64,000 nucleotides of DNA from Escherichia phage WPEC3. Below the pieces are notes generated by a model. It was given only the letters and a program-made list of their open reading frames with translations. It made no database searches and was not told the origin of the DNA. The position numbers and the translations under genes were made by a program. How positions within the stretch are numbered: the stretch's first letter is position 1; every line of letters starts with the position of its first letter. The DNA lies in sequence record PV611058, one strand, 5' to 3'. Of the stretch, positions 51,316 to 52,866 are shown piece by piece.

Positions 51316-52866
51316 TTAAACTATTTCGGTAGCACCATACTTAAAGTAAATTTCCTTAATCATTTCAAGATTATGGATGCTTGTAGTTTCAGACCAACCA
51401 TCCTCCATCAATTCACGTTCAATAATACCTTTCGTATTATGGATTTTAATATTTTCAGTTTGAAACAGTTTCTTACATTCAGTTTCGGCAGCAATACAAT
51501 CAACTGAATTTTCAAATTTAAAAGAGCTAATACGTTTTATATCATAATAACATTTTAAGTTTTGTTCATATTCACGACGACCGAGGATTGTTTCAATTCC
51601 ATATTTTAGCCCAATATATTCACCTGCATTACATATACCACTAATATATGCAATTTTTTGATTGCGATGTGCCTTACGAGGATTGCCACATCCACGCAAA
51701 TGTATAGATGGTGTTTGCCAGAATTCATCACCACTTTCTGGATCAATAATACACACATTAGTACGGGCATCAATATACTCTACTTTACTGTAATCATATT
51801 GTTCATCGTGAATTTCGTTAGCCCTGTTGATAAATTCATCAATTGACATTTTATTTTTCAGGCCAGTTGATATATTAGCACGATCATTATTACCACATCC
51901 CATCAAATGTGATGATGGTGTTTGCCAGAATTCACCATATACTGGATCTATAATACATACCTTAGTACTGTTGTTTACGTATACGACCTTACTATAATCA
52001 TACAGATTATCATGCACCAAATTGGCCTTCTCGATAAATTCATCAAGTGTTAAGCGTTTACTCTGTGCCGTTTTTTCAAAACCACGGATTGGGTTTCCAT
52101 GACCTTTCCAATGGTAGATTGGTTCTTGCCAGAATTCACCATATACTGGATCTACAATACATACCTTAGTCCATGCACCAGTATACTCCACTTTACTGTA
52201 GTCATATAAATGACCATGTACTGCACGAGAACGTTCAATAAAAACTTCGTTGGTGAATGTTTTATTTACTGAAGTTCCTATACGCCCACGTTCCATGTTA
52301 CCATGCTTGGATTTTAAATGGTCATATGGCGTTTGCCAGAATTCACCATACACTGGATCAATAATGCATACTGGAGTTTTACTATTAACATATTCTACGT
52401 TTGAATAATCGAACGTATTTCCAAAACGTTCGATAGCTTCAGCTATAAATGTTTCAGTTGTTTTTGATTTAAGTTTTTTACCATTTTCAATGGCACGTTG
52501 TGGGCTACCTGCACCTTTTAAATGGGAGCTGGGTTCTTGCCAGAATTCACCATACACTGGATCAATAATACATACCTTAGTGCTATTATTTTTATAAACA
52601 ACTTTACTATAATCATAGAGGTTGTTATGAACTTTTTCTGCTCGTTCTATAAACGTTTGGGTGGTTAATTTGCCAACACCTGAACGATATGGATTCCCCT
52701 GACCGCGAATGTGATGTGACGGAGTTTGCCAGAATTCACCATACACCGGATCAATAATGCATACTGGTTCTTTAGCTTTTACATACACTGCTTTTTCGTA
52801 ATTATAGAGATCACCATGTACATTTCGTGCAGCAATTAAAAAAGTTTCTTGGTCGGTAACACGCAT
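51316..52866 (-). CDS. six-repeat protein (516 aa)
   Basis: six tandem ~85-aa repeats with conserved ..YDYS.V.Y.....VCIIDPVYGEFWQ.P..H..G.GNP.R; SD AGGGA. Confidence 0.7.
   Translation of the reverse strand: MRVTDQETFLIAARNVHGDLYNYEKAVYVKAKEPVCIIDPVYGEFWQTPSHHIRGQGNPYRSGVGKLTTQTFIERAEKVHNNLYDYSKVVYKNNSTKVCIIDPVYGEFWQEPSSHLKGAGSPQRAIENGKKLKSKTTETFIAEAIERFGNTFDYSNVEYVNSKTPVCIIDPVYGEFWQTPYDHLKSKHGNMERGRIGTSVNKTFTNEVFIERSRAVHGHLYDYSKVEYTGAWTKVCIVDPVYGEFWQEPIYHWKGHGNPIRGFEKTAQSKRLTLDEFIEKANLVHDNLYDYSKVVYVNNSTKVCIIDPVYGEFWQTPSSHLMGCGNNDRANISTGLKNKMSIDEFINRANEIHDEQYDYSKVEYIDARTNVCIIDPESGDEFWQTPSIHLRGCGNPRKAHRNQKIAYISGICNAGEYIGLKYGIETILGRREYEQNLKCYYDIKRISSFKFENSVDCIAAETECKKLFQTENIKIHNTKGIIERELMEDGWSETTSIHNLEMIKEIYFKYGATEIV

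Follow-up and report, generated by a model that had tools for sequence, protein, structure and literature searches.

What can a phage protein do whose six tandem zinc-finger-like modules carry none of the zinc ligands of their family? The question is raised by a minus-strand open reading frame (ORF) in Escherichia phage WPEC3 (sequence record PV611058), which lies within a stretch of 64,000 nucleotides that we analysed and call the window. The original prediction for this locus was a 516-aa protein at 51316-52866, built of six tandem ~85-aa repeats that resemble zinc-ribbon-like modules with most of the canonical Cys positions replaced. An intact ORF lies exactly there, on the minus strand and with an ATG start. 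We propose that its product is probably a homing-endonuclease-type enzyme of the T5orf172 class (GIY-YIG superfamily), encoded by a free-standing gene of an Asteriusvirus jumbo coliphage.

Sequence comparison within the protein confirmed a tandem array at its N-terminus. The motif CI[IV]DP...G(D)EFWQ occurs six times, at residues 36, 99, 167, 236, 304 and 372. With any one repeat as the query, phmmer scores the remaining five at 41-89 bits (E 1e-14 to 1e-30), against a top phmmer score of 15.8 bits in 2000 shuffles of the protein. These scores bear out the six predicted repeats, and the consensus motif quoted with them was accurate. The predicted length was too long: envelopes from a repeat hidden Markov model (HMM; Table 1) give a period of 63-69 aa (about 67), and the figure of ~85 aa apparently came from dividing 516 by 6. 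Nor is the protein built of repeats only, as they cover aa 1-404, the array ending near residue 404, and aa 405-516 form a separate, non-repeated domain that we assign below to a nuclease superfamily.

The repeats have diverged from one another to different degrees. Identity between pairs ranges from 45 to 76%, and Tandem Repeats Finder reported no array in the gene's DNA, where the repeats are too diverged. Repeats 2 and 5 are 76% identical as protein and share 83% DNA identity over 96 nt (51922-52017 versus 52537-52632), far above the other pairs, which suggests a recent intragenic duplication or gene conversion, events that have been proposed for homing endonuclease genes with internal repeats. 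AlphaFold2 (AF2) gives each module a helix of 12 residues, a beta-hairpin and a further, short helix, with low-confidence linkers that leave the modules like beads on a string. This independence of the modules explains the predicted template modelling score (pTM) of 0.33 for the full-length model. A Foldseek search with that model against the PDB returned nothing, and neither it nor a second fold search with the model turned up a solved structure homologous to the repeat module.

By homology, the repeats are modules of the DUF723/DUF4379 type, described as a 'probable treble-clef zinc finger'. At least 7931 clusters homologous to the 516-aa protein have precomputed annotation as DUF723 (PF05265) and usually also as DUF4379 (PF14311), and a protein 98% identical to it (P0001) is annotated PF05265. 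phrog_4605 matches the protein in six stretches (7e-49), and the repeat HMM matches the canonical module of gp306 from phage PBECO4 at 1.4e-34. The top 120 homologues share one layout, with 4-11 tandem modules (mostly 5-11) running from the N-terminus and a tail of ~95-300 residues after them. Searching with a 65-aa repeat profile gave only proteins shorter than 120 aa, the search seeming biased to targets of similar length. Direct Pfam and NCBIfam scans and a PDB sequence search of the 516-aa protein gave no meaningful match; the sub-threshold Pfam matches (PNP_phzG_C and others) sit on the repeat motif and were dismissed as chance.

None of the six modules retains the zinc-binding tetrad. 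The ligand columns are the C, H, C and C of the canonical module (II-C-P-x-H-GEF...G-C-P-x-C). The resulting C-x2-H...C-x2-C pattern occurs in no repeat of the 516-aa protein; repeats 1 to 6 instead read DYNR, DYSR, DYNR, DYNR, DYNR and DSNK, making 24 of 24 ligand positions non-canonical. The idea of zinc-finger-like modules with their canonical ligands replaced thus holds, the family tetrad having become D-x2-Y...N/S-x2-R.

The replacement follows a rule that recurs across the family. Among 903 repeats from related proteins, the tetrad is CHCC in 773, D-(Y/F/H)-(N/H/S/C)-(R/K) in 110 and anything else in 20. Within the zinc-free modules the D and the R/K are invariant, position 2 is Y or F in nearly all (one H, one S) and position 3 is N, H or S (two C), and this holds across proteins ~45% identical. 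Zinc-free modules make up all or most of the array in 16 of 120 related clusters, and in five of these 16 (P0002, P0009, P0010, P0011 and P0043) one CHCC module stands among five to eight zinc-free ones. Fifteen of the 16 zinc-free arrays carry a GIY-YIG-like tail (a 'YKIGIT' type described below, or the type of the 516-aa protein), whereas CHCC arrays mostly carry other tails. Outside the four ligand columns the two classes are hardly separable: zinc-free and zinc-type repeats are 51% identical to each other and 52-54% within each class, and for several of the six repeats the nearest non-self relative has the CHCC tetrad, with identities of up to 75%. A profile made from zinc-free modules only still retrieved mostly CHCC fragments, so the zinc-free variant is a minority.

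Decay is one way in which such an array could arise. Modules that have lost their zinc ligands might be unable to fold or to bind DNA, and the gene might be turning into a pseudogene. The 24 non-canonical positions fit this account, and so does the behaviour of CapR, a PLE satellite repressor that goes back to the DNA-binding domain of a homing endonuclease and that fails to bind DNA once Cys-to-Ser changes are made at its ligands (Netter et al. 2021, PMC8096241). It also fits the GenBank record of Escherichia phage CMSTMSU (MH494197.1), where the gene (4316-5859) is split into 'hypothetical protein' fragments. We nevertheless judge decay very unlikely. The CMSTMSU copy differs by seven single-base gaps, all in homopolymer runs, and two mismatches, so its breaks are best put down to sequencing errors, and we rejected the pseudogene reading on that ground; this 'UNVERIFIED' record probably has systematic homopolymer errors that break many other ORFs too. 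Against decay, too, the ORF is intact in five independent sequences (WPEC3 and four metagenome contigs), the replacement residues are non-random with very rare intermediate states (20 of 903), conservation of the scaffold residues matches that in zinc-type repeats, and the core residues of the nuclease domain are intact. That 16 of 120 clusters, a minority lineage, hold to this tetrad argues that it did not arise by decay. The earlier label 'degenerate' is therefore misleading, given a tetrad conserved across divergent proteins and a module otherwise as conserved as its zinc-binding copies.

These patterns in the alignments point to a metal site replaced in a coupled, conserved way rather than by random decay. 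On the simplest reading, Asp and Arg would form a salt bridge and Tyr would take up the space of the metal; the fold would then hold without metal, and the six-module array would be zinc-independent. It is quite possible, and we propose tentatively, that selection has kept D-(Y/F)-(N/H/S)-R as a metal-free answer to the treble clef, with the salt bridge and aromatic packing standing in for Zn(Cys3His), and that a phage homing-endonuclease lineage carries a fully functional modular DNA-recognition array that is zinc-independent and redox-insensitive. If so, the near absence of intermediates would mean that the switch acts as a concerted four-residue change, and arrays of eight zinc-free modules with one zinc module would mean that the two versions are interchangeable. 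A further non-canonical state, H/Y/H/A at the ligand positions, occurs in one module of the gene that takes the same genomic slot in the relative E9.1.

The C-terminal domain supplies the putative catalytic half of the enzyme. From profiles and predicted fold we conclude that aa 405-516 are a T5orf172-like GIY-YIG nuclease domain that has diverged in sequence but keeps the conserved residues of its core, and the presence of such a domain at the C-terminus makes the gene one of homing-endonuclease type. AF2 models the domain with a predicted local distance difference test score (pLDDT) of 93.8 and in the beta-beta-alpha-beta-alpha-alpha topology of the GIY-YIG core fold, and the domain alone matches phrog_681 'endonuclease' at 7e-14. 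MUG113 (PF13455) and T5orf172 (PF10544) are both members of the GIY-YIG clan. When 48 isolated domains of the family were compared with Pfam, 17 matched MUG113 (best 6.6e-7), 16 matched T5orf172 (best 7.5e-5) and one matched GIY-YIG (PF01541); the domain of the 516-aa protein itself had no match to any of the three at E<=0.1.

The domain family is large and consistently placed. Among the first 120 homologues, aa 405-516 are shared only with P0001, P0037 and P0064, and an exhaustive profile search recovered 483 cluster representatives, all of which carry it C-terminally. A homologue search with the isolated domain returned nothing, again with a seeming bias to similar-length targets. In 101 proteins of the family, the N-terminal parts carry CapR (75), DUF723 (26) and DUF4379 (17) domains. 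Residues invariant in these 101 members and kept here are Y407, K421, G423, R431, E461, D489, G490 and E493. In the model, Y407 lies in strand 1, K421-x-G423 in strand 2, R431 in helix 1, E461 in helix 2 and E493 in the loop before helix 3. An equivalence to I-TevI residues Y6, R27 and E75 would follow from this topology, as opposed to a residue-level superposition.

In relatives, the same module array precedes a variety of tails, of at least six or seven types. When the tails of 120 relatives were clustered locally, the groups comprised tails with the motif LDFYLP...ECxGxQH (60 relatives), acidic tails (20), 'YKIGIT...GNTELF' tails (12), long tails that match REase_MTES_1575 weakly (12), tails that match DUF559 weakly (3), tails with the motif YEFHGDYFHGNP and no Pfam match (3) and tails like the C-terminal domain of the 516-aa protein (3). 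Two of these types thus have weak Pfam matches to restriction-endonuclease-like families and two others are GIY-YIG-like. Pfam T5orf172 did not recognise a representative 'YKIGIT' tail at E<=0.01, so that label rests on the motif, and an hhalign comparison of 'YKIGIT' tails with a three-sequence profile of the C-terminal domain was not significant. The best explanation for a portable array that delivers different tails, several of which resemble nucleases, is that it serves to target DNA.

DNA binding is the best reading of the array's role, by analogy with characterised systems. CapR binds DNA in electrophoretic mobility shift assays (PMC8096241), and T5orf172 homing endonuclease genes regularly carry repeated CapR/DUF723/DUF4379 zinc-finger domains (PMC10448857). 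Of the 'degenerate DNA-binding repeat array' first suggested for this locus, the DNA-binding part can therefore be kept as the preferred reading by analogy, and 'degenerate' dropped.

Several observations weigh against a DNA-binding homing enzyme as we describe it. The array is not basic: its net charge is about -5 over the six repeats, the isoelectric point of the whole protein is 6.3, and the mean charge of zinc-free repeats is -0.4 versus +1.4 for zinc-type ones. The CapR mutant implies that ligand loss could in principle disable the modules, and AF2 confidence for the repeats derives from an alignment dominated by zinc-type relatives. A direct Pfam scan of the 516-aa protein gave no DUF723, DUF4379, T5orf172 or GIY-YIG match at E<=1, and family membership therefore rests on family-level profiles, PHROGs, the annotations of the 98%-identical protein and the predicted fold. 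The link to the 'YKIGIT' tails is likewise suggestive only, since hhalign with a deeper profile gave a weak match (E 2.3e-4, probability 44%). The ratio of nonsynonymous to synonymous substitution rates, taken against the 98%-identical copy, comes to 0.45, but the 14 differences behind it are too few to interpret.

The roughly neutral or acidic charge would also suit an array that binds protein, RNA or modified phage DNA, or one that still holds metal through its Asp, His or upstream Cys. In every repeat one Cys remains, three residues ahead of the Asp (VCIID), as does a conserved His, and the two full-length fold searches offered no solved structural homologue of the module to fix its function. 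Such alternatives strike us as extremely unlikely. Metal is not bound by Arg, and other zinc-free proteins have L, I or V in place of the upstream Cys; a module family found on at least six or seven tail types has DNA targeting as its simplest common role.

The locus behaves as a slot for exchangeable nuclease genes. The region of the window is 98-99% identical to CMSTMSU, one of the PBECO4/121Q-like Asteriusvirus jumbo phages. The 516-aa gene lies between a conserved 257-aa gene (phrog_1250, weak AAA match) and denV, in a variable cassette that also holds a 65-aa ORF and an upstream spacer. Compared with PBECO4, the flanks of the cassette align at 81% and 93% and the cassette is replaced by unrelated DNA with gp305-gp308; among the Asteriusvirus relatives compared, the flanks are 81-96% identical. 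The slot contains gp306 in PBECO4 (a 379-aa 'endonuclease' with one canonical CHCC module), gp221 in 121Q (a 487-aa endonuclease with CapR domains) and the frameshifted CDS0614/0615 in E9.1, whose C-terminal domain belongs to the same family as that of the 516-aa protein (E 2e-38). Four metagenome contigs, two of which exceed 200 kb, carry P0001, the 98%-identical copy, at this locus. Among close relatives the gene is thus sporadically present or replaced at a fixed locus, and it occupies one locus in every genome that carries it.

A second nuclease gene lies beyond denV. The 137-aa HNH endonuclease ORF is a clean insertion (53671-54074) between denV and the next gene, absent from PBECO4 and CMSTMSU, and by sequence appears to be a second free-standing homing-type gene flanking denV. 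With a different endonuclease gene in each relative and the HNH insertion beyond denV, the locus is a hot spot for free-standing nuclease genes.

A homing cycle would link these features. The six modules, on their flexible linkers, would read an extended DNA site, and the GIY-YIG domain would cut near that site in a related phage genome without the gene. During mixed infection with such a relative, the break would be repaired by recombination from the genome that carries the homing endonuclease gene, and the gene would spread together with adjacent markers such as denV and the 257-aa gene.

The same architecture could also serve a purpose other than homing, as a domesticated or weaponised nuclease that targets host DNA, satellites or rival phages in the manner of ICP1 Odn, or chiefly as a DNA-binding regulator like CapR. 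T5orf172-derived domains have been co-opted repeatedly, giving the CapR repressor and the anti-satellite nuclease Odn (PMC8096241, PMC10448857); the 516-aa gene is stable at one locus in all its carriers, and this analysis identified no target site for its product. We consider this unlikely on balance. All family-invariant nuclease residues are kept, which makes a pure repressor improbable; PADLOC defence-system models gave no match; and the pattern of presence, absence and replacement at the slot, with a second gene (HNH) beyond denV, is typical of free-standing homing endonuclease genes.

By its upstream sequence, the gene reads as having its own early-type promoter. A sigma-70-like promoter lies ~40 nt upstream, its -35 hexamer within a GTTGAC/GTCAGC hairpin. 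The window contains at least 11 minus-strand copies of a ~35-nt element, AAAGGGTTGACTTCGGTCAGCCCTTTTTGCTATAAT, including this promoter. The element is a near-consensus sigma-70 promoter with the -35 hexamer inside a GGGTTGAC/GTCAGCCC hairpin, and copies stand directly upstream of the 257-aa gene, the 516-aa gene, denV and others. We take it to resemble the 'promoter-early stem-loop' cassettes of T4-type phages; it could act as a recombination substrate for cassette exchange.

The homing-enzyme reading places the gene in a class that is already known. The T5orf172 homing endonuclease genes ICP1 gp165 and gp174 and their relatives, described by Barth et al. 2023 (PMC10448857), share its architecture, an N-terminal treble-clef array with a C-terminal T5orf172/GIY-YIG-like nuclease, and its setting, as free-standing genes in a variable slot between conserved phage genes; the 516-aa protein also belongs to existing PHROGs with the annotation 'endonuclease'. 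Their repeat architecture is thought to favour recombination (PMC10448857), a property paralleled here by the DNA likeness of repeats 2 and 5. Unlike those genes, the 516-aa gene has six modules that all lack the Cys/His ligands defining their zinc fingers (PMC10448857), and its putative nuclease domain belongs to a divergent sub-family that the Pfam T5orf172 model does not pick up in this protein. CapR carries a related zinc-knuckle DNA-binding module; it differs in being a single domain without a nuclease and in requiring four Cys for DNA binding (PMC8096241), none of which the 516-aa protein has.

Other GIY-YIG enzymes are more distant. I-TevI and T4 Seg have the nuclease at the N-terminus, the reverse of the order here, and no detectable sequence similarity to the 516-aa protein; the DNA-binding modules of I-TevI also differ, being a zinc finger, a minor-groove helix and a helix-turn-helix. 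SLX1/HIGLE are eukaryotic structure-specific GIY-YIG repair nucleases with RING or PHD partner domains, and at ~10-14% identity to the domain here their likeness is one of fold only.

The new part is a zinc-free, apparently metal-free variant of this known kind of gene. In the papers that we searched on DUF723, DUF4379 and T5orf172 with zinc, where the domains are described as zinc fingers, we found no description of an array with every zinc tetrad changed to a conserved D/Y/N/R. The paralogues of ribosomal proteins with 'C-minus' zinc ribbons, the subject of 'Two C or not two C' by Makarova et al. in 2001, are said to lose Cys ligands recurrently while keeping fold and function, and the loss is reportedly tied to zinc-starvation regulons. 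They are an unrelated family and offer a precedent for a small zinc fold without Cys ligands. We know of no link to a zinc-starvation regulon for zinc-free DUF723/DUF4379 arrays.

Tandem fusions of DUF723/DUF4379/CapR modules to nucleases are among the most abundant and least characterised DNA-targeting architectures in phages: more than 7900 related protein clusters came up in our search alone, and a match is present in 816 phage records of GenBank. A natural zinc-free version is a ready test of the metal's role in the fold, in contrast to the loss of function on Cys-to-Ser change in CapR. The module is also a candidate scaffold for metal-free modular DNA binders, and its tetrad a marker for tracing module shuffling between homing endonucleases. 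The annotation should read T5orf172/GIY-YIG-type homing endonuclease; the only GenBank genome carrying the gene, CMSTMSU, has it as the 'hypothetical protein' fragments discussed above.

Table 1. Positions of the gene, its parts and its surroundings, numbered along the window unless a relative's locus sequence is named.
Feature	Position	Strand	Basis or remark
Putative homing-endonuclease-type gene, 516-aa ORF including stop codon	51316..52866	minus	ORF call; phrog_681 'endonuclease' match 2.7e-63
Repeat 1, aa 5-65	52672..52854	minus	ligand-equivalent D39, Y42, N58, R61
Repeat 2, aa 68-132	52471..52665	minus	ligand-equivalent D102, Y105, S121, R124
Repeat 3, aa 135-202	52261..52464	minus	ligand-equivalent D170, Y173, N190, R193
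Repeat 4, aa 205-271	52054..52254	minus	ligand-equivalent D239, Y242, N258, R261
Repeat 5, aa 273-339	51850..52050	minus	ligand-equivalent D307, Y310, N326, R329
Repeat 6, aa 341-404	51655..51846	minus	ligand-equivalent D375, S378, N395, K398; one-residue insertion (GDEF)
Predicted GIY-YIG-superfamily (T5orf172/MUG113-like) nuclease domain, aa 405-516	51319..51654	minus	profiles, AF2 fold
Shine-Dalgarno-like AGGGAT	52874..52879	minus	8 nt before ATG, read from sequence
Gene's own promoter-like element (TTGACT, 17 nt spacer, TATTAT)	52904..52933	minus	sequence motif
Variable cassette (65-aa ORF, 516-aa gene, upstream spacer)	50963..53175		replaced in PBECO4
Slot in relatives' locus sequences	L002 2268-4496; L004 1531-4350; L003 1432-4350		corresponds to window 50963-53175
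denV, endonuclease V	53158..53595
137-aa HNH endonuclease ORF	53650..54063	minus	phrog_2255, 9e-32
AAAGGGTTGACTTCGGTCAGCCCTTTTTGCTATAAT element copies	1450-1483, 4205-4238, 7471-7504, 12019-12053, 50926-50961, 52904-52939	minus
AAAGGGTTGACTTCGGTCAGCCCTTTTTGCTATAAT element copies, remainder	53624-53663, 58246-58283, 58929-58961, 60510-60542, 61289-61324	minus

Outside the slot, the window shows three further features. Four consecutive ORFs with overlapping stops occupy 48722-50056 on the minus strand; they encode hydrophobic, membrane-like proteins of 104-115 aa, similar in length and character, which look like a tandem paralogue family and also occur in PBECO4 (gp300-303). An 83-aa hydrophobic ORF (54728-54979, minus strand) within 54722-55006 is absent from PBECO4, a small indel in otherwise collinear genomes. 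Finally, GC skew turns from negative to positive near 22 kb (~21000-22000), where GC content also falls from ~0.39 to ~0.34, and back near 47 kb (~46000-48000), a skew pattern that fits an opposite-strand gene block between two minus-strand blocks.

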